In this document: piece after piece, positions 2,590 through 56,154 of the stretch
Numbering within the stretch: the first letter of the stretch is position 1
How the letters are laid out: each line of letters opens with the position of its first letter
From: Pseudomonadales bacterium
Lineage (GTDB): Bacteria; Pseudomonadota; Gammaproteobacteria; Pseudomonadales; Azotimanducaceae
NCBI GenBank assembly: GCA_030749725.1
Contig: JASMJM010000173.1
Span: 4,521-68,520 of the forward strand
Length of the DNA stretch: 64,000 bases
Reading direction: 5' to 3'
Translations under genes and position numbers: made by a program
Notes under the pieces: model-generated
Seen by the model: the letters and a program-made list of their open reading frames with translations, nothing else
What the model was told of the DNA's origin: nothing
Databases searched by the model: none

Positions 2590-2604
2590 CAGAGGATTGA
2601 GTCG

Positions 2605-3369
2605 GTGGATGAGACAAGGGATCCAAAACGGCACCTGGAGCTGGAAGGTGCACAAAACGTGCGTGATCTGGGTGGATATACAACCATGGATGGCGATCGC
2701 ACCCGCTGGCGACGCTTTCTCAGGTCGGACGGCATGCATCTTCTAACCGAAGCAGACCAGGACACCCTGCTGGCCTACGGCGTGGGCACCGTCATCGACC
2801 TGAGAATGTCGATGGAAGTTGAAAAATCACCCAACGTATTCACCAACTCGAACAAAGTCGTCTTTCATCATCTCGATCTGATGGCAGACTTGAAAAAAGA
2901 TAGTCTACGAAAGGATTCTGAACTGTCGAACCCGGCCCAGAGATTCGCTTACATGTATCAGCAATTTCTTTCCAAATGCCGGGACAATGTCGGGAAGATC
3001 ATGGCTACACTGGCGGACGCTGAGAATAACGCATCCATGTATCACTGTGCCGGGGGAAAGGACCGCACCGGTGTTATTTCTGCATTGCTGTTGGGTATTG
3101 CCGGAGTCCCGGATGACACCATCGCGGAGGATTATGCGCTGACATCCATGTACCCAACGAAGACAAAACGGCCAACGCTGGGCAGTCCGGAAACAGACTT
3201 CGTTCTGGATCCGCTCTATGCATACAAGATGGTCTGTCCCCCGGAAGCCATGTTGCTGACACTGGGTTATCTAAAAGAAAAATACGGCAGCGTGAAGAGC
3301 TATCTTCGCTGGATTGGCTTGACCGCAAAGCAGATCGATCGGCTGAAGTCTAAGATGCTGGAAGCATAG
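2605..3369 (+). CDS. protein-tyrosine phosphatase (Y_phosphatase3-type), copy 2 (tandem paralog)
   Basis: 254 aa. GTG start 8 nt after GAGGA. AQNVRDLGGY and P-loop HCAGGKDRTG. Collinear with copy 1. Confidence 0.8.
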   Translation: MDETRDPKRHLELEGAQNVRDLGGYTTMDGDRTRWRRFLRSDGMHLLTEADQDTLLAYGVGTVIDLRMSMEVEKSPNVFTNSNKVVFHHLDLMADLKKDSLRKDSELSNPAQRFAYMYQQFLSKCRDNVGKIMATLADAENNASMYHCAGGKDRTGVISALLLGIAGVPDDTIAEDYALTSMYPTKTKRPTLGSPETDFVLDPLYAYKMVCPPEAMLLTLGYLKEKYGSVKSYLRWIGLTAKQIDRLKSKMLEA

Positions 3370-23731: not shown

Positions 23732-23950
23732 AGCTCTCTCCTCGATTCCCTTTATCAAGCATGGATCATAACAAGATAAGAGACACAGATATAAGCTGTC
23801 GGCGCAGGAGTTCACCCAATACTCCGCTCCTGGAATGACGAACCGTGGGGAAATTGGGTGAACTACGCTACTGGCGAATTGACTCACTTCCGCAAACTAC
23901 TTATAACTCAGTTCTGCAGGAGAATATCACCCCGTGTTACAGGAGTAGCC

Positions 23951-25948: not shown

Positions 25949-27945
25949 GCGAAGCAGCACTTGCCACATCCACCACTGACAAATTGGCTTTCGATGATCG
26001 CGTAGATACCTCAACTGATATCTCATCCCTTGCATCACTCAAACTGCTTGGCCGTTCTTTGAATCTATTGAAAGATGTCAAACTTCTGTTCGCTGGCAAA
26101 TTTGTGTTTGCTGCTGTATCCATGTTCCCGGCTTTGGTAATCCCGTGGGTAGCCAAGATCATCATCGATCAGGTGCTGTTGCAGAAACCATTCGGCACAA
26201 CAGATGTTCGTTTCCCGCCATTCATGGACCCCTTTATTGACCTGGTTGGCGACATGGGCCCCATGGGAATCATGGCAGCGATTGTCCTCATGTATGGGCT
26301 ATTGCTTGTTCTATTCGGCACACGAGGCCCTGGCGGTGGCACTTACGTTTATCTGCCACAAGGCCAGGACTCTGCAACGCAATCGGAAGCCACGCTCAGT
26401 CAAGGCAGCAGCACAGCCGGAGGAATCTGGGGACTGTCTGAGATGATGGTCAACATACGATTGACTCAGCGCATGGCCAACAACTTGCGTACGCGGTTAT
26501 TTGAACGATTGACGCATCTTCCCATGACAACACTGGACGATCATCGCATTGGCGATTCTGTATACCGCGTCATGTATGACACACCACAGGTATCGGGCAT
26601 CTGCTACACCCTGACAATTACACCGGTACTCACCATTGCATTTGCAGCAATCTCACTCTACCTCATGCAATACAGCTATGGCGAAGTAGCGCCCGAATTG
26701 GTGTGGATTGCAGGTGGATTGATCCCGTTCGCGCTCGTCGTTACATTTCCGTTATCGGGTATTGCCAGGCGCCTTAATCAGGCAAGTCGTGCATCGGGTA
26801 CGGCCACCACCAATGCCATTGAAGAGAGCATGGATAATATCGCTGCGGTGCAGAGTCTGGGTGGCACTGAACAGGAAACGGAGAAATTCGAGGCCCGTAG
26901 CTCCGAGTCATTCAAACGATATCGATTGGTCTTCCTGTTCAACCAGATACTCTTTGTACTTGGCTTTATGTGCACTGGCGTTATGGGAATCTATGTGACC
27001 ATACAGATCGGCAACGGTATCATCGAAGGGATCATGTCGCCGGGTGACTTCGGTGTATTGATTGGACTGTTCTATTCTCTTGGTGCTGCTGCACTTCGAA
27101 TTGGTATGTATTGGATAACCCTGCAAAGTAATGTAGCAGCAGTGCGCAGAGTGTTCTTCTTTCTCGACTACAAGTCCGAAGATACCGACACAAAGGGCCA
27201 TACAATACCCCCAATTGAAACCGGCGTGACGCTGGATCACGTTGACTTCTCATACCCCAATCGACAGCAAGTGCTCAACGATATCAATCTTAAACTCTCG
27301 TTAGGTGAACTGATAGCAATTGTGGGGCCTACCGGCGCCGGCAAGACCAGTCTTGCATATTTGCTGCCGGGATTCCTACGGCCCACATCCGGTAGAATGC
27401 TGTTTGACGACACGGACGCAGCGAACGTAAACCTGGCCTCGTTGCGTGACCAGGTTTCCTATGTATTTCAGGAACACATACTGCTCGCCGAGTCCATTCG
27501 GGCTAATCTCCAACTGGCCAAGCCGCAGGCCACCGATGATGAAATCGTCACAGCATGCCGAACTGCGGGGGCGATGGAATTCATCAATACCTTGCCGGAT
27601 GGACTCGATACGATTCTGGGAAGATCCGGTGATACACTTTCAGTGGGGCAACAACAACGATTGTGCATCGCGCGGGGACTCATTCGGGACACCCGAATCC
27701 TGATCCTTGATGAACCCACAGCGGCCCTCGACCCGGAAACAGAAAATGCATTGGTGAGCGCACTGCTGGAAGCCGCCAAAGGGAAGCTGGTGATCATAAT
27801 TGCACACCGACTGTCAACTATTCGCAAAGCGGATCGCATCATTTTTCTCGAAGATGGCCAGGTGAAGGATGTCGGTAATCATGAGACACTCATGTCCCTT
27901 CCGGATGGCGCATATAAACAGTTCGTTGAATTGCAGAGCGGCTAG
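25945..27945 (+). CDS. ABC exporter fused permease/ATPase, subunit A2
   Basis: ATGA overlap with A1. GPTGAGKTS, LSVGQQQR, ILILDEPTAALD, IAHRLST. Confidence 0.85.
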   Translation: MSEAALATSTTDKLAFDDRVDTSTDISSLASLKLLGRSLNLLKDVKLLFAGKFVFAAVSMFPALVIPWVAKIIIDQVLLQKPFGTTDVRFPPFMDPFIDLVGDMGPMGIMAAIVLMYGLLLVLFGTRGPGGGTYVYLPQGQDSATQSEATLSQGSSTAGGIWGLSEMMVNIRLTQRMANNLRTRLFERLTHLPMTTLDDHRIGDSVYRVMYDTPQVSGICYTLTITPVLTIAFAAISLYLMQYSYGEVAPELVWIAGGLIPFALVVTFPLSGIARRLNQASRASGTATTNAIEESMDNIAAVQSLGGTEQETEKFEARSSESFKRYRLVFLFNQILFVLGFMCTGVMGIYVTIQIGNGIIEGIMSPGDFGVLIGLFYSLGAAALRIGMYWITLQSNVAAVRRVFFFLDYKSEDTDTKGHTIPPIETGVTLDHVDFSYPNRQQVLNDINLKLSLGELIAIVGPTGAGKTSLAYLLPGFLRPTSGRMLFDDTDAANVNLASLRDQVSYVFQEHILLAESIRANLQLAKPQATDDEIVTACRTAGAMEFINTLPDGLDTILGRSGDTLSVGQQQRLCIARGLIRDTRILILDEPTAALDPETENALVSALLEAAKGKLVIIIAHRLSTIRKADRIIFLEDGQVKDVGNHETLMSLPDGAYKQFVELQSG

Positions 27946-30285: not shown

Positions 30286-33048
30286 CTAGTCAGACTGAAT
30301 CACCACAGTGCCTGCGTCACCGTCGACTTCCAGGATCTGCCCGTTCTTCACTCGCCGGGTGATATTGCCCGTACCCACCACAGCAGGGATGCCATACTCC
30401 CGCGCAACAATGGAACCGTGGCCCAGAATGCCACCGATATCGGTGACCAGGCCGCTGGCGTGGGCAAAGAGTTGCGTCCAGGCAGGCGAGGTCATGGGGC
30501 ACACCAATATCGAACCCGGTCGCATCTGGTCGAATTCATCAGCGTTATGGATCACGCTGGCTTGACTCGTGATGGTCCCGGGGCTCACTGGAATACCCCT
30601 CAGCGTACCGCTGGAATCATCATTGATAAACTGCGTTTCCTTGAACTTGACGCCCGGATTTTCGCTAATCTCCGGCGGAATCGTGCCAGGGGGATGCAGA
30701 CGCCTGCGCGCCTCTCTCAATTCACGGCGCTCAGCGGCCAATTGTGCGTATTCCGGTATAGCGTTACCCCCTTGGCGCGCTTCCATGGCAGGTTCAATTT
30801 CGGAGGTATTGAGAAAATATATATCTTCTGAGGTTGCCAGTGTGCCGATATCAACCAGACGCTGCCCAAGCTCGGTTGCAATCGGCCGCAGCACAGGCCA
30901 GGCAGTACCCAGGACGAAACAGGACTCTTCCCGGATGGGATAGTACTTTCGCGTAAACCAAAGGCGGTACCGGAACTGCCAGTATTGCAGACCATCGAGC
31001 AACTCCTCGATGTCCTTCATGGCCTGTTCACGTTTACGGGTTGCCTGCTCCTCGTGTTGTTTCGGGTGGTAGTCCCTGTTCTGCACCATCGCCTTCAAGG
31101 TCACGAACAGCGTCGACGGATCTTCAATCTGCGTCGGTTCACCGAAATCCAGACTATAGCCCTGGTGACCATAGATCTGCAGATAGCTGTCGAGCGCCTC
31201 GAGTATCGGCCCGCTGTCGGGATGTGCCTGAAGCTCGCCCATCAGACGTTTTGCAGGGGTCGCAACGACAGTTTCAAAGAGTGATTTGCTGGCCCGGATC
31301 ATCTTGCAGATATCATATAAGTCGTCATTGGCCTGCATGATCCTCGACTTGAATCCAGAGAGGAATTGCCCACTGGTGAATTGGTGGTCGGGCAGGGTTT
31401 CCCTCAGAAAGCACTGCAGCTGATCGTCTGTGGATTTCGCAACACCAAAGGTGTGGCCGCCGTTGCTGCTCCAGTACCAACCTTCGGCAGCGGCCAATTC
31501 CCGAATCCCCGTCAGGAGCTGCTCATCCGGGGCAGTCTCTACGTCTACCCGCCGCCACTTCTCGGTGGCTGCCTCCAGTTCCGGAACGGCTCTTTCGCGC
31601 CAGTCAGCATGCTGCCGGTCGTTTACGGCAGTCTTGTTAAACGCAACGTACGTTGGATTGTCACTCTCTGGCATGGTCACCGCGTGGGCCAGATTATCCG
31701 TCGCCAAACCATCAGCCATCGTCTGAAAGTCGGCACGTTCCTGTTCTGTCAACTGGTCCAGGAACATCTGTAGATCATGCTGTTCCTGCGCTCTTCCCTC
31801 AGGGCTGCTGGTGGCTGCTTCTTTCTGGGCCTTGATTTCACGGCGAAACTGCTCATCGTTTGTCTGTGTGGCAAATCCCGCTATCTGAAATGCAAAGCCA
31901 TGCAGCGTCGTAAAGCCGGACCTACCGCCCGGTTTCCTGCCTGCCAGACCCTTATGGATGTACAACTCATCAAACAGTGGGAAAGTGGGATCCGGAACAT
32001 TTTCGATAAGCTGGCGACGGACCAGGCCCTTGATGCCTTCCGGAGCTTCCCACTGCACCTCGATAGGTTGAGGTGGCAGATTGGTGATCGGCCTGGATTG
32101 CAGCAGTGAAAGCTTGCCGTCTGCTATCGCCCACTCAATATCCTGGGGTAAGCCATCGAAGTGTTCTTCAACTTTGATGGCCAGGCTGGCCAACTCGCCG
32201 AGAAGAGCATCGGATAGTGACGACTGAGCACGCTCGTTTTCAGACACATCTTCCAAACGGGTGCCCTGCCCAGCATCGGAAATAACCTTCTGCTCCTTCG
32301 GACCGATGATCGTTTCCTTCACGGCCATGGAATTCCGATCCACGATGAACGTGTCCGGTGTCACCTGCCCTCCGACCACCGCTTCACCGAGGCCAAAACT
32401 CGCATTGATAATGAGTTCCGAACGTTCACCGGTGGCCGGGTTTGCGGTAAACAGGATGCCGGCCACATCTGCCGGCACCATGATCTGGACCACGACAGCC
32501 ATGGCGACCGAGCCCTGATCTATAGCATGCTCATGACGATAACTGATTGCCTGCACAGTCCAAAGAGAAGCCCAACAGTTTCGCACTGCCGCAAGCAGGG
32601 CTTCGGCGCCGCTGACATTCAGGTAGGTCTCCTGCTGACCTGCGAAGGAAAGCCCCGGCAAGTCCTCAGCGTTAGCTGATGAGCGCACCGCTACGGCTGG
32701 TGCTCGGCCCCCGGAAGGATCGACCAGTGCCGCATAGGCTTCGCTTAGCTCTGCAATGGTCTCTGCGGACAGATTATATTCGCCGATCAACTGTTGAATG
32801 GCTGTTGAGGCCCTTTCAAAGGACGCTCTGACAGCCGTAACTTCAGGCCTGGCAAGTTCCACTATCTTCGCCTGCAGATTGTTGTCAGCAACGAATGCCT
32901 TGTAGGCAGCAGTCGTTAGGTGAAATCCATCGGGCACAGAAAATCCCGCATTAACCATCCTGGCAAGTGATCTGCCCTTGCCACCAAGCACTTCAAGATC
33001 ACCATCAGTCGTCGCGAGGAGTCGTACATTCGTTATGTCGTCTTTCAT
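30286..33048 (-). CDS. Rph/PpsA-like phosphotransferase, paralog K2
   Basis: 920 aa, collinear with K1. GGKGRSLARM...VAVRSSANAEDLPGLSFAGQQETYLN at the N-terminus. CPMTSPAWTQLFAHASGLVTDIGGILGHGSIVAREYGIPAV at the C-terminus. Confidence 0.85.
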   Translation of the reverse strand: MKDDITNVRLLATTDGDLEVLGGKGRSLARMVNAGFSVPDGFHLTTAAYKAFVADNNLQAKIVELARPEVTAVRASFERASTAIQQLIGEYNLSAETIAELSEAYAALVDPSGGRAPAVAVRSSANAEDLPGLSFAGQQETYLNVSGAEALLAAVRNCWASLWTVQAISYRHEHAIDQGSVAMAVVVQIMVPADVAGILFTANPATGERSELIINASFGLGEAVVGGQVTPDTFIVDRNSMAVKETIIGPKEQKVISDAGQGTRLEDVSENERAQSSLSDALLGELASLAIKVEEHFDGLPQDIEWAIADGKLSLLQSRPITNLPPQPIEVQWEAPEGIKGLVRRQLIENVPDPTFPLFDELYIHKGLAGRKPGGRSGFTTLHGFAFQIAGFATQTNDEQFRREIKAQKEAATSSPEGRAQEQHDLQMFLDQLTEQERADFQTMADGLATDNLAHAVTMPESDNPTYVAFNKTAVNDRQHADWRERAVPELEAATEKWRRVDVETAPDEQLLTGIRELAAAEGWYWSSNGGHTFGVAKSTDDQLQCFLRETLPDHQFTSGQFLSGFKSRIMQANDDLYDICKMIRASKSLFETVVATPAKRLMGELQAHPDSGPILEALDSYLQIYGHQGYSLDFGEPTQIEDPSTLFVTLKAMVQNRDYHPKQHEEQATRKREQAMKDIEELLDGLQYWQFRYRLWFTRKYYPIREESCFVLGTAWPVLRPIATELGQRLVDIGTLATSEDIYFLNTSEIEPAMEARQGGNAIPEYAQLAAERRELREARRRLHPPGTIPPEISENPGVKFKETQFINDDSSGTLRGIPVSPGTITSQASVIHNADEFDQMRPGSILVCPMTSPAWTQLFAHASGLVTDIGGILGHGSIVAREYGIPAVVGTGNITRRVKNGQILEVDGDAGTVVIQSD

Positions 33049-33158: not shown

Positions 33159-35171
33159 TCAGCCGCTCTGCAGCTCGACAAAGGTTCTGTATGGACTATC
33201 CGGATTCGCCATCAGCTCTTCATGATTGCCAACATCACGAATCTCACCTTCTTCGAGAAAGACAATCCTGTCGGCCCTGCGAATCGTCGACAGGCGATGC
33301 GCAATGACGATGACCAGGCGGTCCTGGGCTGCAGCCCGCAGGGATTCGACCAGTTGACCCTCGGTGCGCGGATCGAGGGCCGCGGTCGGTTCATCAAGGA
33401 TCAGGATTCGCGCATCGCGGACCAGCCCACGAGCAATAGACAGACTTTGCTGCTGCCCAACGGACAGGGTGTCGCCGGAACGGCCAAGGACGCTGTCGAT
33501 GCCATCCGGCTTTGAGTCGATGAACTCCATACATCCGGCCGTCTCCAGTGCAGCCATCATCTCCGCCTCGCTTGCAGCGGGATTGGCCAGCAGCAAATTG
33601 TCGCGAATGCTCTCAGACAGGAGCAGGTGCTCCTGGAACACATAGGTCACCTGCTGTCGCAGCGAGTCGAGATCGACCTCGGATAGGTCCTTGCCGTCAA
33701 TGAGCACGCGGCCGGCTGTCGGCATCACCAACGACGGTATCAGGTAGGCGAGCGTGGTCTTGCCTGCGCCGGTGGGGCCGACCAGCGCCACCAGTTCGCC
33801 CATCGGCAATTCAAGATCGACGTTGGTGAGTGCGCGATGTCCGTCAGGATACTCAAAGTCGACCCCTTGGATGCTAACCCCGTCAGAGATGGTGCCCAGA
33901 TCCACTGTACCAGGCCGATCTTCTTCCGATTCATAGTCCACGAAGAAGAATACCCGGCGGACCGCGGCGATGGTCTCCTGCAGCTTGATCCACATGGCGC
34001 CAAAGAAACTGGCCGGCTCAACAATGCCCTTGTAAACCCCAAACAGCACGGCAAAGTCGCCGGGTGACATGGTGCCTTCAATGATCTGATCGCTGATGAG
34101 TATCGTGACGTAGATACCGGCGGTGCCCGTCGCTGCTCCGGCAATTGTGGCCACTACAATAACGACCGCCAGGGCGTAGCGTTCGCGCAGAAACGTGTGG
34201 CTACTCCGATCCGCAAACCGTTCTTCTTCCCGCCCCGTGCCGCCCAGGCTCTGCACGGCCCCAATGTTGCTCATGGATTCTTCCATGGCATTGGTAGTGG
34301 CGGCACCGGCGGCTCGCTTGTTCTGATTGGTTCGTCGCAACACGCCGGAAAAAGGAAAACAGATCGCAAACATGGCGGGAAACGTCGCCCAGGCGATCCA
34401 TATCAATTCAGGCGATATGTCACCATAGGAATATTGCAGAATGTATATATTGATGAGTGCACTCACCAGATATAAGAACGGCGTCAATGTCAGGTTGTAA
34501 GCGAGGTCGGGTGCGTGCGGCGCATCGTAGAGGACCCTATACACCGAGTCACCTATACGCTGGTCATCCAGTATGGTCATGGGCAGACGACTCAGACGGT
34601 CGAACAGGCGCGTGCGCAGGTGATTCGCCATGGTCTGGGTGAGTCGCACATTCACCATAAACTCCGCGACTCCCCAGATGCCACCACCACTACTACCACC
34701 GGAACTCAGGGCATTTTCAGCCTGGGTCGCGGCGTCCCTGCCCTCCTCCAATTGAGCACCCATCTTGCTGGACCGCATGCCTATCGTCACCAGCATAACG
34801 GCGTATATGATGGTCAGAGTGAGCATAATCTCGAGCGGACCCTTGCCATCCACGAAGTTCACGATCGGATTCATAAAGGGTGGATAGGCGACAGCAGTAT
34901 CACCAAAAGGGCGCTGCAATATGACATTGTCGATGACGATCTTCGCCATCCATGGCAGCAGCAGTACTGGAAACATCAGTCCCAACGCCAGCAGGAATTT
35001 AGCCAGGAAAAGACCCTTAGCACGCGTAATCAGCTGGATGCAACGTCCGATAATCGAGAGCGCCTCGATCGTGTTGATGTCCGATTGTACATCGACCCGG
35101 TCATCGAATGTGTTCTTGCCAAGAACCCTCTGAAGGATGGAATCCTGTTCTTTTATAGCGACTTCGCTCAT
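33159..35171 (-). CDS. ABC exporter fused permease/ATPase, subunit B2
   Basis: GPTGAGKTT, LSVGQQQS, ILILDEPTAALD. Shares DDQRIGDSVYRVLYD and the C-terminal FVELQSG with A2. Confidence 0.85.
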   Translation of the reverse strand: MSEVAIKEQDSILQRVLGKNTFDDRVDVQSDINTIEALSIIGRCIQLITRAKGLFLAKFLLALGLMFPVLLLPWMAKIVIDNVILQRPFGDTAVAYPPFMNPIVNFVDGKGPLEIMLTLTIIYAVMLVTIGMRSSKMGAQLEEGRDAATQAENALSSGGSSGGGIWGVAEFMVNVRLTQTMANHLRTRLFDRLSRLPMTILDDQRIGDSVYRVLYDAPHAPDLAYNLTLTPFLYLVSALINIYILQYSYGDISPELIWIAWATFPAMFAICFPFSGVLRRTNQNKRAAGAATTNAMEESMSNIGAVQSLGGTGREEERFADRSSHTFLRERYALAVVIVVATIAGAATGTAGIYVTILISDQIIEGTMSPGDFAVLFGVYKGIVEPASFFGAMWIKLQETIAAVRRVFFFVDYESEEDRPGTVDLGTISDGVSIQGVDFEYPDGHRALTNVDLELPMGELVALVGPTGAGKTTLAYLIPSLVMPTAGRVLIDGKDLSEVDLDSLRQQVTYVFQEHLLLSESIRDNLLLANPAASEAEMMAALETAGCMEFIDSKPDGIDSVLGRSGDTLSVGQQQSLSIARGLVRDARILILDEPTAALDPRTEGQLVESLRAAAQDRLVIVIAHRLSTIRRADRIVFLEEGEIRDVGNHEELMANPDSPYRTFVELQSG

Positions 35172-37186
35172 GGTCCTTCTCCGACATCACTGCCAGCGAT
35201 CTCCGCGTTAACGAAGCCACGGTACTTACCTGCTTCCTTGGACATCAGTTCGTCGTGCCGACCCTGTTCCACGATTCGACCATCCTCCAGGAAGGCAATC
35301 TCATCGGCATTGCGGATGGTGGACAGGCGATGTGTAATGAGGAATATCACTTTCCCCCGACCCCACTCCGACAGGTTGGCGAGTACCTGCTGCTCCGTCC
35401 TGGCATCCAATGAAGCAGTGGGCTCATCCAAAATCAGGATCTGTGTGTCGCGCACGATGGCCCGCGCAATTGATAGGCGCTGGCGTTGTCCGGCAGATAA
35501 TTTCCCACCGCGTTCTCCAAGTTCGGTGTCATACCCTTTCGGCATCGCCTTAATGAAATCGTCCGCACAAGCTATCCTGGCGGCGGCTTCGAGATCAGAG
35601 CGTTTGGCATTCGCTGCTGCATAGGCGATATTATTGGCCACAGTCCCTGCAAACAGCGTGTTCTGCTGCAATGCGATCGATGTGTTGGCCCGTATGTCAT
35701 CCACCGCCACATCTTTGAGATCGATGCCGTTGACCAGCAATTGCCCCCGGTCCGGGTCATAGAGTCGCAGCAACATGGACATCAAGGTTGACTTGCCGGC
35801 CCCGGTCGCACCGACAATGGCGGTCACCGTGCCCACCCCACCGCGCAGATCGATTCCTCGCAGCACTGGATGGGCGTCATCGTAACCAAAATACACATCG
35901 CGCCAGGTCGCCTCGATGATTGGTGACGGGAAGCTGACCGGTTCATCCGGATCCACTACGTCAAGCTTAAGGTCCAGAAGATAGAACGCCCGGTCCAAGG
36001 CGATGAACAGATCCTGCATCCTGGTCCAAAGGCCAACGAAGAAGCCGCCGGTCTGGGTGAGATCACTAACTCGCTTCCTGGCAATCTCAAAGGCCCCCAG
36101 ATTCCACAGAACAAAGCCAAGGAATGACGCTGCCCAGGCGCCCAGAAACGTCTCACGTTCTTCAACTACAAAGGTCACCATGATGTATTCGGCGGATACC
36201 AGGGTGACTCCCCCTAGCAAAGCCACCATTGCAGTCAGGATCACCATATCCAATCGAAGAAAGTACGCGGTGTTTAGTGCATTCACGGAATCCCGGTTGA
36301 AACGATCGAACACCCGGGCCTCCGCGCGATTGGCTTTGACAATTTTGATCGCGGCAAAGACCTCCTGCAGGCGCGAAGTAAGATCGCTGTTGGCCATCCG
36401 ATTGTTCATGGCACGACGCCGGATGCGCGGGGTATAGACGACAATCACCCAAACTACCGGCACGCCGACAACAATAATCATGGCTGCAAAAATCGGGTCG
36501 AACGCCATGACAAAAAGCAGCGCAAACACGATCCAGCCGAGCGTCATGATCGGGTAGACTATGCCACTCTGCAGCAGGCTCATGATCATCGCGCTATCCT
36601 GGTAGACCCTGAAGATCGCATCACCCACCCTGGCATTATCGTGATACTTGAGTGACAAGGACTCCGCCCGTTGCACCATGGCCACCCTCAGATTCTGGTT
36701 GATGCTCTGCCAGACCCACATGGTGTAGTAGGGAATCAGGAGCCATACGAGTCCTGCGCCCACAGCACCCAGGATGCCCCAGATGATCAACCGGTTACGC
36801 ACTGTTTTGCGTTGATCCCAGGTCAGTTCCGGTTCAACATTTTCGAGTTGCACCGTTTTTGAGGCCGACTGCTTGCCATTCAGCCGTTCCGGGTCATCGG
36901 TGACATACTCCTCGCCCACAAACAGCACCATGGCCTGAATTGGCTGCAGCTTCTCACCAACCAGCACCTTGTTGGTGAACAGATCCGTGCCGACAAATAA
37001 AGTGACCAACCCGCCGAGACCACCGACAAAGAACAACGAGCCCAAAAAGATCAAATGCTTCAGCATCGGCCGCATGTACGGCCAGGTCTTCCATGCCAGT
37101 GCTGCCATTTTTCGAAAGCTCAACTTCGGCGTTTCGGCTTCGGCATTGCCTTGCTGGTATCCCTGGATCAATCCTAGTTCACTCAT
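35168..37186 (-). CDS. ABC exporter fused permease/ATPase, subunit B1
   Basis: ATGA overlap with B2. GATGAGKST, LSAGQRQR, ILILDEPTASLD. Shares KTWPYMRP and INQNLR motifs with A1. Confidence 0.85.
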   Translation of the reverse strand: MSELGLIQGYQQGNAEAETPKLSFRKMAALAWKTWPYMRPMLKHLIFLGSLFFVGGLGGLVTLFVGTDLFTNKVLVGEKLQPIQAMVLFVGEEYVTDDPERLNGKQSASKTVQLENVEPELTWDQRKTVRNRLIIWGILGAVGAGLVWLLIPYYTMWVWQSINQNLRVAMVQRAESLSLKYHDNARVGDAIFRVYQDSAMIMSLLQSGIVYPIMTLGWIVFALLFVMAFDPIFAAMIIVVGVPVVWVIVVYTPRIRRRAMNNRMANSDLTSRLQEVFAAIKIVKANRAEARVFDRFNRDSVNALNTAYFLRLDMVILTAMVALLGGVTLVSAEYIMVTFVVEERETFLGAWAASFLGFVLWNLGAFEIARKRVSDLTQTGGFFVGLWTRMQDLFIALDRAFYLLDLKLDVVDPDEPVSFPSPIIEATWRDVYFGYDDAHPVLRGIDLRGGVGTVTAIVGATGAGKSTLMSMLLRLYDPDRGQLLVNGIDLKDVAVDDIRANTSIALQQNTLFAGTVANNIAYAAANAKRSDLEAAARIACADDFIKAMPKGYDTELGERGGKLSAGQRQRLSIARAIVRDTQILILDEPTASLDARTEQQVLANLSEWGRGKVIFLITHRLSTIRNADEIAFLEDGRIVEQGRHDELMSKEAGKYRGFVNAEIAGSDVGEGP

Positions 37187-40203: not shown

Positions 40204-42618
40204 GTGAATGAACAGAACCTGATTAATGCACTGCCGACATGGGGTGATGCTGATCTTCCCGCCCATCGCGATCGCAGCGCCGACTCGGATCCGCGCGGAC
40301 TGAGTGATGTCGTTAAGATACTGATACGCACCTGGCCGTTTCTGTTGCCGCAGATCCTGGGGCATTGGCGTGATTACACTCTATTGCGTTCCTCGACCTT
40401 GTCTTCTGCCGATAGTGATTGGAGCTATGGCTATGTACCTCCACTCGTGACCGTACTTGCACTTATCGGCCCGGTTTCCGGACTTACCCCGATTGGTGTC
40501 AACTGGCAGCTTGATCTGTTGGTTACGGGCAGCGCAATCATGACCTTGCTCACCTGGTCATTGATGATCGTTACAGGCAGGTGGTTTATCGCAGCCGCCG
40601 TCTTCCTCGTGTTGATCAGCAGTGGCACCCTTGCATTCGCAGTCATGGTAGTAACGGGTTGGACGGATAACCTGCAGGTCGGCTTGGTATCTTTAGGTTG
40701 CCTCGGTATCTGGTTGCTGCAGTTTAGAAGAGCGAACGGGGCAGTACAGGTGCGGATCCGTTTAGGATGCCATCTGGTCTACTACTATGTATTGGTGTGG
40801 GTAGGTCTATTGTTGACCACCATAGCCGGACTGTTCACCATTGATCTGCTCAATCAGTCAATTCTGCAAGCCAAACCACTGACCCCTTTCCTGGCAGACT
40901 TCATCGGCCGGCCGGATATCGCCAGAGACAGCATCGAAACCCTGACAGTTGCCCAGCGACAGGAACTGCAAGTAACGTATATGGTGCTGGTGGTCGTAGT
41001 CGGGTTCCTGATGTTTCCATTCGCTGCCGTATTGCCTTATTACAATGTGTGGATCATGCAACGCATCAACCAGGATTTGAGACTGGCACTGGTTGAACGC
41101 TGGCACCAGCTTTCCCTCCGATATCACAGTGACCACCGCGTGGGCGATTCCGTCTATCGCATCTACCAGGACAGTGCCCAGGTAACTGCCATCATCGGTA
41201 TGCTGATCTCGGTGATTCAGCAACTGACAATGTACCTGGTCACAATCCTCTTTGTCACTGCCCTCGATCCCCTGCTGGGATTGCTGGCGGCAACGATTGG
41301 CATCATTGCCATTATCTGGGGTCACTGGTTTTCGCCTCGTCTGCGTGTCAGATCACTGGTGGCCCGGGAAGCCAATTCAGATCTGACATCACGTATCCAG
41401 GAAGTTTTTGCTTCCATCAAGGTGATTAAAGCCCATGGCACCGAGGGGCTTGAGCAGCAACGCTTTGAAAAGGATTCGGTGGTGGCTTTCAATTCTGCCT
41501 ACAAGGTGCGCTCATTGACCGCCATCGTCACAATCGTCATGTTTACCCTCAGCGCTGCCATATTGATCGGTGGGGAATTCATGATGGCAATCTGGGCCAA
41601 TGAGAGTCGAGAGACATTCGCTGCCGTACTGATTGGATTGATCGGCCTTAGCTTTGTTAAGTGGAACCTGGCTGCATTTCAATGGGCACAGGGGGAGTTT
41701 TTCAAGACCAGTAGTCAAGTGCGGGGATTGCTGCGCTCATGGACCAGCGCCCAGGACATGTCAATGGGCATCGATCGTGTATTTCACATCCTCGACATTG
41801 AGCCGGATGTGCAAAATGACCCCAACGCTATTCCCCTGCCGCCATTCAGTGATGAAATCACGTTCGACAACATCAGCTTTGCCTACGAAGCGGACCGTCC
41901 GGTGTTGCACAATGTCAGTTTTTCTGCAAAGCCCGGCACCATCACCGCAATCGTTGGGCCAACTGGTTCCGGCAAAAGCACACTGGTAGGACTGTTGACG
42001 CGTATCTTCGATCCGGATTCGGGCAGTATCACCATCGATGGCAACGACCTGCGCAAGCTGGATCTGGACAGCCTGCGTGGCAATGTCTCTATCGCGTTAC
42101 AGGAAAACGTCCTCTTTGCCATGTCGGTACGAGACAACATTCGCTATGTAGTACCAGATGCTACAGACGATCAAGTTCGTGTTGCAGCAGCGGTCGCCTG
42201 CGTCGATGACTATATCGATGAACTGCCGCAGGGCCTGGATACGATACTGGGTGACCGGGGAGGAAAACTCTCCACCGGGCAACGTCAAAGACTCTCTATT
42301 GCCAGGGCAATAATGAAAGACGCGCCGATACTTATCCTCGATGAACCTACCGCCGCGCTCGATGCGAACACGGAGCACCGGGTGCTGGAGAGACTTGCCG
42401 AGTGGGGCGAAGGCAGAGCCATCTTTTTGATCACGCATCGTATCTCAACCATACAAAGGGGTGACCAGATCCTTTATATCGATCAGGGCGAGATTATTGA
42501 AAGCGGTTCTCATGCAGAACTTATGCAGATAACCGGAGGACGTTACCGGCGTTTTGTCGAAACGGAATCGTCCTTATCTAACCGTTCCAGTGAGGCGGGA
42601 GATGGCAGCCATGACTGA
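40204..42618 (+). CDS. ABC exporter fused permease/ATPase, subunit C1 (extended N-terminal membrane region)
   Basis: GTG start. 804 aa. GPTGSGKST, LSTGQRQR, ILILDEPTAALD. Shares RTWPF and INQDLR motifs with A1/B1. About 140 extra hydrophobic residues sit near the N-terminus. Confidence 0.8.
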   Translation: MNEQNLINALPTWGDADLPAHRDRSADSDPRGLSDVVKILIRTWPFLLPQILGHWRDYTLLRSSTLSSADSDWSYGYVPPLVTVLALIGPVSGLTPIGVNWQLDLLVTGSAIMTLLTWSLMIVTGRWFIAAAVFLVLISSGTLAFAVMVVTGWTDNLQVGLVSLGCLGIWLLQFRRANGAVQVRIRLGCHLVYYYVLVWVGLLLTTIAGLFTIDLLNQSILQAKPLTPFLADFIGRPDIARDSIETLTVAQRQELQVTYMVLVVVVGFLMFPFAAVLPYYNVWIMQRINQDLRLALVERWHQLSLRYHSDHRVGDSVYRIYQDSAQVTAIIGMLISVIQQLTMYLVTILFVTALDPLLGLLAATIGIIAIIWGHWFSPRLRVRSLVAREANSDLTSRIQEVFASIKVIKAHGTEGLEQQRFEKDSVVAFNSAYKVRSLTAIVTIVMFTLSAAILIGGEFMMAIWANESRETFAAVLIGLIGLSFVKWNLAAFQWAQGEFFKTSSQVRGLLRSWTSAQDMSMGIDRVFHILDIEPDVQNDPNAIPLPPFSDEITFDNISFAYEADRPVLHNVSFSAKPGTITAIVGPTGSGKSTLVGLLTRIFDPDSGSITIDGNDLRKLDLDSLRGNVSIALQENVLFAMSVRDNIRYVVPDATDDQVRVAAAVACVDDYIDELPQGLDTILGDRGGKLSTGQRQRLSIARAIMKDAPILILDEPTAALDANTEHRVLERLAEWGEGRAIFLITHRISTIQRGDQILYIDQGEIIESGSHAELMQITGGRYRRFVETESSLSNRSSEAGDGSHD

Positions 42619-44641
42619 CACAATGGACGTCAAAACGTCACTCAGGTCAACGGAAGAGAGTCTGGACCAAGCAGCACATGCACTGGATGTTCATACTGAC
42701 ACCAACTTTTGGGAGGCCATTCGAATAGTTGGTCGCGGCATTACCTACATCAGATATTTCAAGGTACGATTCCTGCTGAGAGCTTTGTTATTCTGGCTGA
42801 GTCTAATGTCACCTCTCATTCTTCCCTGGCCAATCAAGATCGTCATCGACAACGTCATTCTTGGATTGCCCATGGGTCAGGGTACTGTCTACCCTCCTTA
42901 TTTTGTGCCCTTTATCGAGTTTCTGGATGGCAGGGATCCCGTGGAAATCATGGCCTGGATCGTTGTCCTCGCAGCGTCCTGGGTCATTCTCTTTGGCGCC
43001 TTTGGTACTGGAGCAGCTCAGACGTGGACGGAAGGTTTCCTTGCTGAGGGTCACGACACCGCCACACGAACCGAAAACGAAGCGAATGAAGCGGCCAGCA
43101 AATTATCCGGTTTGGTTGGCCTGATTGAGTTCAGACTGGTTCTCAGGCTCACCCAGGCCGTGAATCACCTGATTCGAGTGCAGTTGTTTGAGCGGATCAA
43201 TTCACTGTCCATGAAAGAGCTAAACGATCAACGGATCGGTGACAGCGTATACCGAATCATGTACGACACACCATCGATCACCAACATATTCTATCAGGCA
43301 GTCCTGTCACCGGTATCGGCTGTGTGGACCTTCTGCGTCGTGCTGGCAGTGATGTCCTACAGTTACGGCGACGCACCTGAATTGATCTGGCTGGTGTTGC
43401 TCATGCTGCCGTTACAAACAATCGCCATGACTCCTTTCTTCCGTCCCATGAGGCGACGCGCTCAAGCCAGTCGTGCCGCCGGATCTGTTACCACTGGCAA
43501 TATCGAGGAAGGCATGAGCAACGTGCTTGCCGTTCAAAGTCTCGGTGGCAACAAGCGCGAACGCCAGCGTTTTGGCAAGGTCAGCAACGAATCCTTTAGA
43601 CGATTCAGGGGACAGATACTGGTGGATATTCTCCGGGGAGTATCCTCAAAGGCGGCCGGTGGTTTGCTCGGACTGCTCGCTTTCTACATGATCACCAGCA
43701 GAGTCATCGAGGGTATGTTGACACCCGGTGATTACGGTGTGCTGCTATATTATTTCCTGTGGCTAGGCGGTTCACTAACCGCTCTTCCCTATGTGTGGTA
43801 CCGCATCCAGGAAAGTATTCCCGGTATCCGACGCGTCTTCTTCATCATGGATTTACCTAACGAGGTAATGCGTGGCGGAATAGATATTCCACAGATTGAG
43901 GATGCAATTGAATTCAAAGACGTTGGCTACACTTACACCGATGGACGCAGGGCACTGAGTGGTATAAACCTATCCACCCGGATTGGGCAGATCGTCGCGT
44001 TTGTCGGCCCAACCGGCGCAGGCAAAACCACCCTGGCCTATCTGGTGCCCGGCTACTATGAACCAACAGAAGGAAATGTGTTGGTGGACGGAGTCGATCT
44101 GAGTGAGATATCCCTCGCCAGCCTTCGACAGCAGGTTTCCTATGTATTTCAGGAATCCCAGTTATTCTCAGATTCAATCCTGGACAACATTCGTTACGGT
44201 AAACCGAATGCAACGCTCGAAGAGGTCGAGCAAGCCGCGCGTATTGCCGGTGCTGACGACTTTATCAAGGCACTGCCGGATGGATATGATACGCGCCTTG
44301 GAACAGTCACCAGCAAAATCTCCGTGGGCCAAAAACAGAGAATTGCTATTGCCCGGGGCTTGCTCAAGGATTCCAGCATCCTGATCCTCGATGAACCCAC
44401 ATCTGCTCTGGATCCTGAAACAGAGGCTTACCTTGTGAACGCTTTACATGAAGCCGCCAAGAACAAACTCGTCATCATCATTGCTCACCGCCTTTCTACC
44501 ATCGCGCATGCAGACACAATCGTATTCCTCAAGCAAGGTGAGATACTGGAGCAGGGATCCCACCAAGAGCTGTTGGCTGATCCCGAAGGGGCATATCGGC
44601 ATTATCTGATGTTGCAGGCTGCTGACACAACGACGGTATAA
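42602..44641 (+). CDS. ABC exporter fused permease/ATPase, subunit C2
   Basis: Start at ATG 42602 or 42611, overlapping the C1 end. GPTGAGKTT, ISVGQKQR, ILILDEPTSALD. NDQRIGDSVYRIMYD is shared with A2/B2. Confidence 0.8.
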   Translation: MAAMTDTMDVKTSLRSTEESLDQAAHALDVHTDTNFWEAIRIVGRGITYIRYFKVRFLLRALLFWLSLMSPLILPWPIKIVIDNVILGLPMGQGTVYPPYFVPFIEFLDGRDPVEIMAWIVVLAASWVILFGAFGTGAAQTWTEGFLAEGHDTATRTENEANEAASKLSGLVGLIEFRLVLRLTQAVNHLIRVQLFERINSLSMKELNDQRIGDSVYRIMYDTPSITNIFYQAVLSPVSAVWTFCVVLAVMSYSYGDAPELIWLVLLMLPLQTIAMTPFFRPMRRRAQASRAAGSVTTGNIEEGMSNVLAVQSLGGNKRERQRFGKVSNESFRRFRGQILVDILRGVSSKAAGGLLGLLAFYMITSRVIEGMLTPGDYGVLLYYFLWLGGSLTALPYVWYRIQESIPGIRRVFFIMDLPNEVMRGGIDIPQIEDAIEFKDVGYTYTDGRRALSGINLSTRIGQIVAFVGPTGAGKTTLAYLVPGYYEPTEGNVLVDGVDLSEISLASLRQQVSYVFQESQLFSDSILDNIRYGKPNATLEEVEQAARIAGADDFIKALPDGYDTRLGTVTSKISVGQKQRIAIARGLLKDSSILILDEPTSALDPETEAYLVNALHEAAKNKLVIIIAHRLSTIAHADTIVFLKQGEILEQGSHQELLADPEGAYRHYLMLQAADTTTV

Positions 44642-53583: not shown

Positions 53584-53739
53584 CACCACCTCCGTCAAGC
53601 CTAACATTCTCTTTGAGGCGCGTCATGCGGACACGGGAATGGACGTTACTCCACCCGTCGCCAATGTGCAAGCCGTCTGGAGCAGCGGCTCGCCCGCTGA
53701 CGCTCACAGACGAAATCGCTGCCCTGGACTTGATATATC

Positions 53740-53773
53740 TAGACTATCTATGTATCCTACCCTAGAATATCTA
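53740..53773 (+). promoter_or_regulatory. two TAGA-N3-TCTA inverted repeats, candidate PadR operator
   Basis: TAGACTATCTA (53740-53750) and TAGAATATCTA (53763-53773), 23 nt apart. They lie 37-70 nt upstream of the PadR start. Confidence 0.3.
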
Positions 53774-53809
53774 TGCACGTGGGATAAACTTGGTTATTGG
53801 GGAAAGAAT

Positions 53810-54151
53810 ATGGCTTTAGCTAAAGGTCTTGTTGCAGCATCAGCGACCCCGCTGATCCTCTCTATATTGAGTCATAGAGACAGCTATGGGTACGCCATTA
53901 TAGAAGAGGTGCGAAAGTTGTCCGACGGGGAACTGCAGTGGGCCGATGGCATGCTCTATCCAATCCTACACCGCCTGGAAGACCGACAGCAGATCGAGTC
54001 CTATTGGGGCGCGTCTGAAAATGGCCGTAAGCGCAAATACTATCGTCTGCGTAAATCGGGACTCAAGGAACTCGACGAGCAACGGAACAATTGGAACAAG
54101 CTACATGCCATGTTGATGAATCTGAAGGGAGGCAAAGCATGTTTCAACTAG
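53810..54151 (+). CDS. PadR family transcriptional regulator
   Basis: 113 aa. SYGYAIIEEV...GMLYPILHRLEDRQQIESYW...RKRKYYRLRKSG is the classic PadR winged-helix pattern. Confidence 0.85.
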   Translation: MALAKGLVAASATPLILSILSHRDSYGYAIIEEVRKLSDGELQWADGMLYPILHRLEDRQQIESYWGASENGRKRKYYRLRKSGLKELDEQRNNWNKLHAMLMNLKGGKACFN

Positions 54152-55317
54152 AATCGGCAATTCGCGATTGGTGTGATGCCATACGAGACAGCGGCTGTGA
54201 GGATGAAGCGAGTATCGAGGAGCTTCGAGATCATCTTTGCTGTGAGATCGAGCAACTCCAGGAACGGGGTCTTAGCGAAGAGAAGGCCTTCAGGTCAGCA
54301 GTGGCCAAACTCGGTCCGGTAGAAGACTTAGCGGCGGAATTGCATAAGCTCATGGGATACATCACGGATCATCCATGGGCTTCTAACGAGGAGACTAGTA
54401 TGGCATCCAAAATCACACACGGCGAGATCACCTTGTTTACGCGCCAAGTGTCGACGATGATGAAGGCGGGCGTTCCGGTTGTACAATCGCTGATAATTGT
54501 CGCCGACGGTACCGACAACCCAACGATGAAGGATTTGATTCTCCAAGTCAGGGACGACGTATCCGGTGGTCAATCGTTGACCGACGCCCTGAGGGGGCAC
54601 CCGGATCAATTTGACGATCTGTATTGCGATCTGGTGAATAAGGGTGAGCAATCCGGTTACCTTGAGGTGATGCTGGACCGCATAGCGATCTACAAGGAAA
54701 AAACCGAAGGGCTCAAGGCCAAGATCACACGTGCATTGAATTTTATGATCACCGTGCCGGCTGTGATATCAGGCATCCTGCTGCTCACGCTGGCACCCCG
54801 CTTCGGAATCGGGCTGCTGCTCGCTATCGCGGCATTCTATCTTGCCTGCAGGCAGGTGCTCAGACAATCCCAGAAGGTTCGCGACCGGCAGCAGCGCCTG
54901 GCATTGAGACTGCCGATATTGGGGGACCTCTTCGGCAAGTCCTGCATTGCGCGATACTCCCGTACACTGTCGATAACCTTTGCTGCCGGCGTGCCTTTGG
55001 TTGATGCCCTTGAATCGGTCTCAGGTGCTGCTGGTAACGTCGTCTACTGCGATGCCATCGAGCAAATCAAGAAGGATGTATCAGACGGCATGAGGCTAAC
55101 CGCATCGATGAAACAGACGGCTGTCTTCCCCAATATGGTGATTAATATGGTCGCCGTCGGTGAGGAATCGGGCGCGCTTGACGCGATGTTTGATAAGGCT
55201 GCCACATACTACGAAGAAGTGGTCGATAACTCGCTCGCTGGACTGAACGCCCTGGTTAACCCAATTATCATGTCCTGCATGGGCGCGGCGATCATCGCCA
55301 TGTATCTAACCTCCTAA
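54139..55317 (+). CDS. chimeric membrane protein: PadR-partner N-terminal helical domain fused to a PilC/GspF-like (T2SS-F) platform protein
   Basis: The start overlaps the padR end by 13 nt. Residues 1-75 (ESAIRDWCDAI...IEELRDHLCCEIEQLQERGLSEEKAFRSAVAKLG) resemble the helical domain usually encoded next to PadR. The rest has two T2SS-F repeats: LFTRQVSTMMKAGVPVVQS...GEQSGYLEVMLDRIAIYKEK, and IARYSRTLSITFAAGVPLVDALESVSGAAGN...VGEESGALDAMF. Confidence 0.7.
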   Translation: MFQLESAIRDWCDAIRDSGCEDEASIEELRDHLCCEIEQLQERGLSEEKAFRSAVAKLGPVEDLAAELHKLMGYITDHPWASNEETSMASKITHGEITLFTRQVSTMMKAGVPVVQSLIIVADGTDNPTMKDLILQVRDDVSGGQSLTDALRGHPDQFDDLYCDLVNKGEQSGYLEVMLDRIAIYKEKTEGLKAKITRALNFMITVPAVISGILLLTLAPRFGIGLLLAIAAFYLACRQVLRQSQKVRDRQQRLALRLPILGDLFGKSCIARYSRTLSITFAAGVPLVDALESVSGAAGNVVYCDAIEQIKKDVSDGMRLTASMKQTAVFPNMVINMVAVGEESGALDAMFDKAATYYEEVVDNSLAGLNALVNPIIMSCMGAAIIAMYLTS

Positions 55318-55367: not shown

Positions 55368-56099
55368 CTACAGTTCCCGCACCCAGATATTTCTGAAACG
55401 AACCGGGTGACTGTGGTCCTGCAACATGATGGCAGCGTTCCCATGGGCCAGATTCCTGGGTAGTCCGATGTACTCGGTGGTACCTTTTACCTCCACGTGG
55501 TTTTGAATGAGCGCACCATTGTGAAGTACCGTGAGATAGGCGGAACTCGTTTTGATGCCATCGCCATTGAATGCCGGCGCTCTGTAAACGATATCGTAAA
55601 CATTCCATTCACCCGGCGCGGCTGTCGCATTAACCAACGGCATGGATTGCTTGTAGATTGCGCCGGCCTAACCGTTCGAGTAGGTTTTGCTCACAAAGCT
55701 ATCCAGGATCTGAACTTCGTAGCGTTCCTGTAGAAATACGCCCGAGTTGCCCCTGCCCTGCCCTTCGCCAACGATGACGGTAGGTGAGCTCCATTCGATA
55801 TGCAGTTGGATGTCGCCAAACGTTCGCGTCGTTAGTATGCCTCCCGTTCCCGGGACGACCGTCAGGTTGCCGTTGTCCACTTTCCACTTTGCGCCGCCTC
55901 GGTCTCGTTGGGATTTCCACTCACTGACTCCCGAGCCGTCAAACAGCACGATCGCATCCGAAGGCGGCGCGCCATTGCCGGCGGTAGTGATCTTGCTCGG
56001 TACGGGCTCCCACACCTCCGTGGCCACAGGGTCTTTGATCTCGGCTGACACCATTGCGCTTATGCCAACGGATAATAGAAATAGAATAGATCCTTTCAT
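55368..56099 (-). pseudogene. DUF1080 (3-keto-disaccharide hydrolase-like) exported protein with an in-frame TAG
   Basis: ORF 55668..56267 (signal peptide MKGSILFLLSVGISAMVSA from 56099) ends ...SKTYSNG at TAG 55668-55670. Reading continues in the same frame as AGAIYKQSMPLVNATAAPGEWNVYD...FRNIWVREL (ORF 55368..55643). Confidence 0.75.
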
Positions 56100-56154
56100 G
56101 TCGTACCTCTCTGTGGGGAGCCCTAATGAGATCCCTGTGAACATTAACCGGTTA

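Follow-up and report, generated by a model that had tools for sequence, protein, structure and literature searches.

A PadR-paired membrane protein joining a HAAS-like partner domain to a shortened, orphan PilC in a marine Pseudomonadales bacterium

HAAS-PadR dyads and the layout of the two-gene locus

HAAS-PadR dyads are a proposed alternative to two-component systems (Ravi et al., mSystems 2024, PMC11237479). As described there, the HAAS protein always lies beside a standalone PadR-like winged helix-turn-helix protein and its domain consists of three helices, the third kinked with a GxP motif. The fusions listed there join HAAS to FtsX/MacB_PCD, FtsW/RodA, PspC, LiaI-LiaF-TM, Toastrack, VanZ, pentapeptide, and two-, four- or six-transmembrane (TM) modules (PMC11237479). 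A related arrangement is known from Listeria monocytogenes, whose PadR repressors mainly control their own operons, and in the LstR operon the protein Lmo0421 is a RodA/FtsW-family homologue shown experimentally to lack RodA/FtsW function (Hauf et al., Sci Rep 2019, PMC6624303). The locus reported here lies in 64,000 nucleotides (nt) of contig JASMJM010000173.1 from a Pseudomonadales bacterium (the window, meaning the whole stretch analysed), and consists of padR followed by a gene whose product joins a PadR-partner domain to a shortened PilC, a platform protein of type IV pili (T4P) and type II secretion systems (T2SS). The PilC-derived module is a new module in the known HAAS-PadR kind, and a literature search found no relevant account of PadR and PilC fusions. 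The elements of the locus, in window positions, are as follows.

53730..53758, + strand: sigma-70-like promoter of the padR operon found by promoter scan, -35 TTGATA, 17-nt spacer, -10 TATCCT
53739..53754, no strand assigned: operator-like palindrome copy 1, CTAGACTATCTATGTA, within the -35/-10 spacer
53762..53777, no strand assigned: operator-like palindrome copy 2, CTAGAATATCTATGCA, just 3' of the -10, 23 nt from copy 1
53810..54151, + strand: padR, encoding a short, single-domain, 113-residue (aa) PadR-family winged-helix repressor
54139..55317, + strand: fusion gene, 392 aa plus stop, a HAAS/perm_prefix_1 domain joined to an N-terminally truncated, loop-deleted PilC

The PadR protein matched Pfam PF03551 over residues 16-89 with 75.2 bits against a cutoff of 27, placing it in the PadR family. 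Its best NCBIfam model, TIGR03433 (padR_acidobact), scored 90.4 bits, below the cutoff of 101.8, and the protein falls outside that narrower group, which covers PadR paralogs found beside the perm_prefix_1-bearing ADOP permeases. Every homologue at 66-83% identity is likewise a 113-aa PadR protein. The fusion open reading frame (ORF) runs from an ATG at 54139 to a TAA at 55315-55317, with GGGAGG located 6 nt 5' of the ATG. This ATG is taken as the true start, rather than an upstream TTG of the mechanically called ORF, because all homologous partner proteins begin with MF(Q/R/D/N)L. The ATG lies inside padR, so that the 3' end of padR is overlapped by 13 nt, as the first-pass annotation of this DNA had stated, and the overlap suggests translational coupling. 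The two genes form an overlapping bicistron behind an operator-bearing promoter, and a composition profile across the operon revealed no GC anomaly.

A direct-repeat search found CTAGAMTATCTATG twice 5' of padR, 23 nt apart. A tandem palindrome pair of this kind, with a family consensus of about ACATAGA-N3-TCTATGT, was present 5' of padR in all eight related loci compared, and no further operator copy at 0-1 mismatch was found elsewhere in the 64 kb. The same promoter geometry occurred 5' of the homologous padR in three of these loci (L029, L030 and L035) with better hexamers (TTGACA-17-TATTAT or TATATT), the former being that of L029 and L030. Because the operator pair sits on the promoter, we infer that PadR would repress its own transcription via these two putative operators.

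The eight loci comprised the window, L026, L031-33 (one sequence from three samples), L035, L027, L028, L029 and L030. In each of them the N-terminal domain of the fusion is encoded directly 3' of padR, mostly with a 13-nt overlap, which is the adjacency described for HAAS-PadR dyads. The locus also resembles those dyads in that a short standalone PadR is followed by a membrane protein with an N-terminal helical domain of about 70 aa of the same family. A further likeness is the swapping of the C-terminal module, since the partners of the closest relatives are 2-TM, ~6-TM or PilC-derived. Close PadR relatives (73-78% identity) were accompanied by overlapping perm_prefix_1 partners with differing C-terminal modules, namely 164-165 aa with two TM helices in L027 and L028, and 258-281 aa with about six TM helices in L029 and L030. 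In a neighbour-joining (NJ) tree, the PadR proteins paired with fusion, 2-TM and ~6-TM partners were located in separate clades, and partner type thus tracks PadR phylogeny.

Some of these related loci have features of their own. In L027 (5001-8528) and L028 (5001-8512), the genes behind padR and the 2-TM partner encode an ABC-2 type transporter (ATPase and permease) and a methyltransferase, which may be the regulated output in that branch. In L030 (3535-5494), two perm_prefix_1-like ~6-TM genes of 258 and 278 aa stand in a row behind padR; the latter matches perm_prefix_1 only weakly (15.7 bits), and the pair looks like a tandem duplication of the partner.

The partner domain and the PilC-derived module

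The 392-aa protein divides into the following parts.

54139..54363, + strand: residues 1-75, PadR-partner domain identified by profile match (NCBIfam perm_prefix_1; HAAS-like three-helix)
54364..54417, + strand: residues 76-93, variable linker and fusion junction, PilC homology beginning at about Met88 (54400-54402)
54418..54732, + strand: residues 94-198, first PilC cytoplasmic helical-bundle domain, T2SSF repeat 1; predicted local distance difference test (pLDDT) 88-96; 40/45 PilC-invariant positions kept
54733..54864, + strand: residues 199-242, remodelled hairpin of TM1, tight turn (P220-x-x-G223-I224) and TM2, with 31 aa of canonical periplasmic loop and TM2 start deleted
54865..55242, + strand: residues 243-368, second PilC cytoplasmic domain, T2SSF repeat 2; Pfam T2SSF 274-391; pLDDT mostly 84-92; 53/59 PilC-invariant positions kept
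55243..55314, + strand: residues 369-392, shortened TM3 ending in ...AMYLTS, 4 aa shorter than canonical and without the periplasmic tail

The first-pass annotation, which was made from the letters alone, had read the locus as a PadR regulator paired with a chimeric protein in which a PadR-partner domain is joined to a shortened, orphan PilC. This reading proved correct, and the profile and alignment matches behind it are far beyond chance. The roughly 75 N-terminal residues assigned to the partner type matched NCBIfam NF038403 ('permease prefix domain 1') over residues 23-69, with 45.3 bits in the whole protein and 49.3 bits in the isolated domain against a cutoff of 30, which makes the domain a member of that family. 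A HMMER search with the N-terminal 96 aa against 1.84 billion representatives returned 475 homologues. In the typical one, of 150-180 aa, the domain takes up residues 1-70 and one or two TM helices come after it, and a few are FtsX/MacB_PCD (ADOP) permeases of 870-890 aa. NF038403 was matched by all 62 N-terminal homologues tested, three of which are such permeases. The HAAS-FtsX/MacB_PCD fusion of the published list corresponds to this ADOP architecture, which also carries perm_prefix_1 (PMC11237479). The family-wide near-invariant residues of the domain were all retained in the window protein (15/15). The AlphaFold2 (AF2) model placed helices at residues 4-17, 23-42 and 47-57, followed by G59-P60, with a pLDDT of 65-80 from a single-sequence N-terminus. 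No Pfam model reached its threshold on the domain, and the proposed equation of perm_prefix_1 with HAAS rests on shared architecture and on the literature.

A PilC part occurred in none of the top 150 N-terminal relatives, a count in which fusions inside PilC clusters could be hidden by the 50% clustering of the library, and searching a word index for homologues of these 96 residues returned nothing beyond a fragment of the same gene. The linker differs in length by 8 aa between the window and L026, and Met88 is invariant in the three fusion lineages described below and in the 2-TM partners of L027 and L028. Met88 also aligns with a consensus Met just before GAKITPGD in the sister PilC clade. 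The junction Met may therefore be a trace of the fusion's origin, for example by read-through into a 5'-truncated pilC ORF or by microhomology.

The remainder of the protein belongs to the T2SSF family, as the match to PilC and T2SS platform proteins reported earlier had implied. Pfam PF00482 recognised two repeats over residues ~94-392 with 178.6 bits (E = 5.7e-53), and all the PilC motifs quoted earlier (LFTRQ, GEQSG, AAGVPLVDAL, FPNMVI..GEESG and YYEE.VDN) are present. The PilC part was 56-60% identical to the 406-411-aa PilC of marine 'Pseudomonadales bacterium' and Ca. Azotimanducaceae metagenome-assembled genomes (MAGs), and in a tree it was sister to a marine Pseudomonadales PilC clade. 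As in canonical PilC/GspF proteins (EpsF, OutF and TcpE), the T2SSF repeat occurs twice, and in each copy a TM helix follows the cytoplasmic bundle. The mean pLDDT of the whole AF2 model was 78.8, and the cytoplasmic bundles were predicted confidently (88-96). A Foldseek search with the cytoplasmic domain matched EpsF (2vmb and 3c1q), OutF (5nbg) and PilC (2whn) with target-normalised TM-scores of 0.82-0.92, and also TcpE (4hhx).

The differences from canonical PilC/GspF were mapped by alignment to 7 and then 118 canonical PilC relatives. The native N-terminal domain, about 64 aa, is replaced by the HAAS-type domain; the TM1-loop-TM2 region has lost 31 aa (3+5+23), where the first-pass annotation had estimated roughly 30; and TM3 is 4 aa short, the 14-15-aa C-terminal tail that follows AMYL in PilC being absent, in line with the early stop noted at MYLTS. 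The internal deletions are all in frame. None of the 118 canonical relatives shows such deletions, and the fusion lacks the complete PilC/GspF architecture of N-segment, loop, and TM3 with tail. It also scored below every equivalog cutoff, with 238.5 against 700 bits for NF052607, 236.1 against 700 for NF052606, and 241.8 against 424 for TIGR02120 (GspF). On this alignment, the parts of PilC predicted to be exposed to the periplasm are all gone, and the two cytoplasmic bundles remain. The AF2 model showed the hairpin as a helix at 175-218, a turn at 219-222 and a second helix at 223-243, in answer to the structure prediction that had been called for.

At columns invariant in the 118 canonical PilC proteins, the window protein keeps 110/135 residues (81%), versus 25-33% at variable columns, and 16 of the 25 changes at invariant columns fall in TM regions. 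The branch leading to the PilC part is about twice as long as those of the sister PilCs (root-to-tip 0.52 versus 0.38-0.41). Together, these patterns show that constraint on the membrane parts has been relaxed or redirected and that the cytoplasmic domains have stayed constrained.

Further fusion lineages, population and genomic context

A search for the same fusion elsewhere, as had been recommended, was carried out through PadR homologues and the genomic context of their closest relatives, and two further lineages were found. In L026, the PadR is 83% identical to that of the window and its partner is a fusion of at least 360 aa, again with a 13-nt overlap. In L031, L032 and L033, which carry one identical sequence from three samples, the PadR is 76% identical and the partner is a fusion of at least 297 aa. 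The identity of these fusions to that of the window was 60% and 46% at the aa level for L026 and L031-33, respectively. The L026 and L031 fusions match both perm_prefix_1 and T2SSF, with NF038403 scores of 32.3 bits for L026 and 27.5 bits for L031, the latter just under the cutoff of 30. The three fusion lineages align without a gap across the remodelled hairpin, with N201, L214, P220, G223 and I224 invariant, and the 31-aa deletion is on this ground a shared derived character. In domain 1 of L031, 17/45 PilC-invariant residues are changed. The PadR proteins of the three lineages form one clade in the NJ tree, and the sequences point to a single ancient fusion event.

Between the window and L026, the proportion of synonymous differences (pS) in the fusion gene was 0.762 (saturated) and that of nonsynonymous differences (pN) was 0.229, with the highest pN (0.40) in the hairpin segment, residues 199-242. 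For PadR, the ratio of nonsynonymous to synonymous substitution rates (dN/dS) was 0.076. By these sequence comparisons, purifying selection has maintained the fusion architecture in three or more lineages that have long diverged. No synteny between the fusion lineages was found in the upstream flanks. In L031, the upstream gene (3-617, - strand) is not syntenic with that of the window; its product is a secreted protein bearing collagen-like triplet repeats (GxT/GxQ). The fusions are a small family found so far in metagenome-derived sequences only, and the window lineage is marine.

Within the window lineage, the exact 392-aa protein was indexed in 80 blocks of the collection, and the 24 contigs read, from Tara, JGI, ENA, Logan and NCBI MAGs, had the same synteny around the fusion gene. 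Near-identical neighbouring gene products bear the NCBI name 'Pseudomonadales bacterium', which places the host in a marine Pseudomonadales MAG lineage. The 1508-nt locus was 99.9-100% identical in nucleotides among 12 contigs (L001-L012) from many unrelated samples. The host population appears very clonal, and a within-population pN/pS estimate was dropped given this near-identity. A scan of 185,579 species-representative contigs with the whole fusion returned the canonical pilC of Alcanivorax, Paraglaciecola and others, and no fusion-specific peptide; the host species is therefore either unrepresented there or represented without the locus. Metagenome contig scans added nothing beyond the already-known Ga0114932 contig, and a viral contig scan did not find the fusion. 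The accessions of 10 of the closest canonical PilC proteins are not from host MAGs. Cluster members of 305 aa were considered as possible split genes and rejected, being contig-start or insertion sequence (IS)-junction artefacts.

One site in the fusion gene carries an interruption in a minority of strains.

55036..55037, no strand assigned: IS630-type interruption site in a minority of strains, not interrupted in the window; L002 and L025 diverge here into AT-rich sequence

In these two independent assemblies (L002 10001-10947 and L025 193-2230), the fusion is interrupted after codon ~298. Past this point L025 contains DDE_3 and HTH_23/32 transposase genes, the rest of the fusion is absent, and unrelated genes follow. 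The interruption may reflect a genuine rearrangement, or else the assembly may have jumped through a repeated IS.

The annotated absence of neighbouring pil and gsp genes was borne out, none lying within +-10 kb of the fusion gene. A tblastn search with the flanks of six canonical pilC loci found no PilB or PilD homologue in the 64-kb window, and no pil operon was seen there. At canonical pilC loci such as L014, by contrast, the order is pilB-pilC-pilD. The fusion thus differs from canonical PilC/GspF in lying apart from pilB and pilD within 64 kb and in being paired and co-evolving with a PadR.

Other features of the window were recorded in passing. The convergent downstream gene (55368-56100, - strand), of the DUF1080 / 3-keto-disaccharide hydrolase family, carries a CAG-to-TAG nonsense mutation at ~55668-55670; it is split into ORFs of 143 and 91 aa in the window and most contigs, and is intact (243 aa) in L004. 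Three pairs of adjacent genes for fused ATPase/permease ABC exporters lie at 23858-27945, 33159-37186 (- strand) and 40204-44641, and two large paralogous genes for phosphoenolpyruvate (PEP)-utilising, pyruvate, water dikinase-like proteins at 11368-13941 and 30286-33048 (- strand), an unusual concentration of paralogs for 64 kb. Two tandem paralogous genes of ~255-263 aa at 1798-3369 were seen, by eye from the translation, to carry a tyrosine-phosphatase-like motif, HCxAGKDRTG.

Readings of the locus and their meaning

The locus is probably an autoregulated HAAS-PadR signalling pair with an exapted PilC as its membrane module, and the earlier suggestion that a repurposed platform protein serves as the membrane partner of a PadR switch is thereby supported. 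In this proposed mechanism, PadR bound to the two operators would repress its own operon. The fusion would reside in the inner membrane in the N-in orientation of PilC, its HAAS domain and two bundles being cytoplasmic and its anchor being formed by the tight TM hairpin and the short TM3. A signal perceived via the PilC-derived module would alter the HAAS domain, which would bind or release PadR and so switch transcription. The PilC part would then act as a sensor or docking module and no longer as a pilus or secretion platform, and the most plausible inputs would be a PilB/PilT-type ATPase, a PilC-targeting molecule or the state of the membrane. A more specific version, that the PilC module still docks with PilB/PilT-type motor ATPases or with platform-targeting molecules or phage proteins, so that the cassette would wire T4P or secretion state, or attack, to the PadR switch, is possible but doubtful.

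Several observations weigh against the signalling-pair reading. The GxP kink motif is only partly kept, with G59 at least 90% conserved in the family and the Pro not. The Pfam HAAS model PF22564, from the superfamily that also takes in DUF1700, DUF1129 and DUF1048, was sub-threshold on the N-terminal domain (13.6 bits, E = 0.088, cutoff 27, residues 26-67); a comparable sub-threshold match across the same profile positions was obtained for the L029 homologue. A profile search of the PDB with this domain gave no structural relative and returned only spurious TM matches. The AF2 model is of low to moderate confidence in the linker and hairpin, with pLDDT below 50 at residues 59-89. The PadR clade of the three lineages comes from an NJ tree without support values, and the complete C-terminus is known from the window lineage alone, the L026 and L031 contigs ending earlier. 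Finally, the IS630-type insertion in a minority of strains means that the fusion gene is dispensable under some conditions at least, and not essential.

In T4P and T2SS machines, the cytoplasmic bundles of PilC are the parts that face the ATPase. The PilC-derived protein might be the regulated output of the PadR switch, an effector or decoy rather than a sensor, which upon derepression would dock onto PilB/PilT or GspE-type ATPases or the inner-membrane complex of the pilus and block or re-route their activity, the HAAS domain feeding back on PadR. The cytoplasmic bundles are indeed the best conserved parts, the periplasmic ones being deleted, and the 64 kb holds no good operators other than those at the promoter of this operon, which leaves the fusion as the only evident regulated product; Listeria PadR proteins, too, mainly govern membrane proteins of their own operon (PMC6624303). 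However, neither PilB/PilT nor a canonical PilC is encoded in the 64 kb, the 17/45 changed invariant residues in domain 1 of L031 argue against a strict interface with a canonical partner, and a HAAS domain would be superfluous in a pure effector. This role is less probable than the signalling pair but a live alternative. That the protein is a genuine if unusual platform of a machine encoded elsewhere, with an acquired regulatory N-terminal tag, is unlikely. The two T2SSF repeats with their strong Pfam score, the 81% retention of PilC-invariant residues and the three remaining TM segments would fit such a platform. Against this stand the failure at every equivalog threshold, the missing N-terminal segment of ~64 aa, periplasmic loop and C-terminal tail, with no such deletions in 118 canonical relatives, the 16/25 invariant-site substitutions in TM regions, a branch of about double the length seen in sister PilCs, and the orphan position within 64 kb as opposed to pilB-pilC-pilD at canonical loci.

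The least credible explanation is a decaying chimeric pseudogene still open by chance, or an assembly artefact. It could draw on the IS630-type disruption in some strains, the nonsense mutation of the adjoining DUF1080 gene in most contigs and the long branch of the PilC-derived part, about twice those of sister PilCs. However, the identical gene in 80 indexed blocks, with 24 contigs read from different projects, is neither unique to one assembly nor a misjoin, and the 305-aa short forms are contig-start artefacts. Two further, strongly diverged lineages (46-60% identical) carry the same deletions, 31 aa of them in the hairpin, in frames open for at least 360 and at least 297 codons. Furthermore, pS is saturated (0.762) with pN at 0.23, the internal deletions are all in frame, and the retention of residues is biased to conserved sites. 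The recent chimeric pseudogene that the first-pass annotation had offered as its alternative is thus rejected, the frame being open in three lineages with 81% of the invariant sites kept.

As a HAAS-PadR signalling pair, the locus extends the dyads described so far in two respects. Its T2SSF/PilC module is absent from the fusion list in the part of PMC11237479 drawn on here, and this module is mostly a cytoplasmic helical bundle, in contrast to multi-TM or extracellular sensor modules. The LstR-Lmo0421 operon of Listeria offers a direct conceptual precedent for an exapted PilC, in that a PadR controls its own operon together with a membrane homologue of an envelope machine that has lost its function. 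The two cases differ in that Listeria belongs to the Bacillota and recruited a component of cell-wall synthesis, and in that the loss of function was tested there, whereas the loss of platform function in the fusion is concluded from the deletions and the context.

For the annotation of such loci, the consequence is that pipelines will name these genes 'type II secretion system F family protein / PilC', wrongly implying a function in pili or secretion. The naturally minimised PilC indicates which parts are able to fold and to be selected on their own, and provides a handle on binders of the cytoplasmic face of PilC. A T4P/T2SS platform protein can, on this evidence, be exapted by having its periplasmic parts stripped and being made the membrane module of a PadR pair. 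HAAS-PadR dyads, recently proposed as an alternative to two-component systems, thereby gain a new class of module. Together with the FtsW/RodA parallel in Listeria, the PilC fusion suggests a recurring strategy in which degenerate parts of envelope machines serve as sensors. If the more doubtful docking version of the mechanism is true, HAAS-PadR dyads would more generally recruit degenerate copies of core envelope machines, FtsW/RodA, FtsX and now PilC, as molecular decoy sensors.

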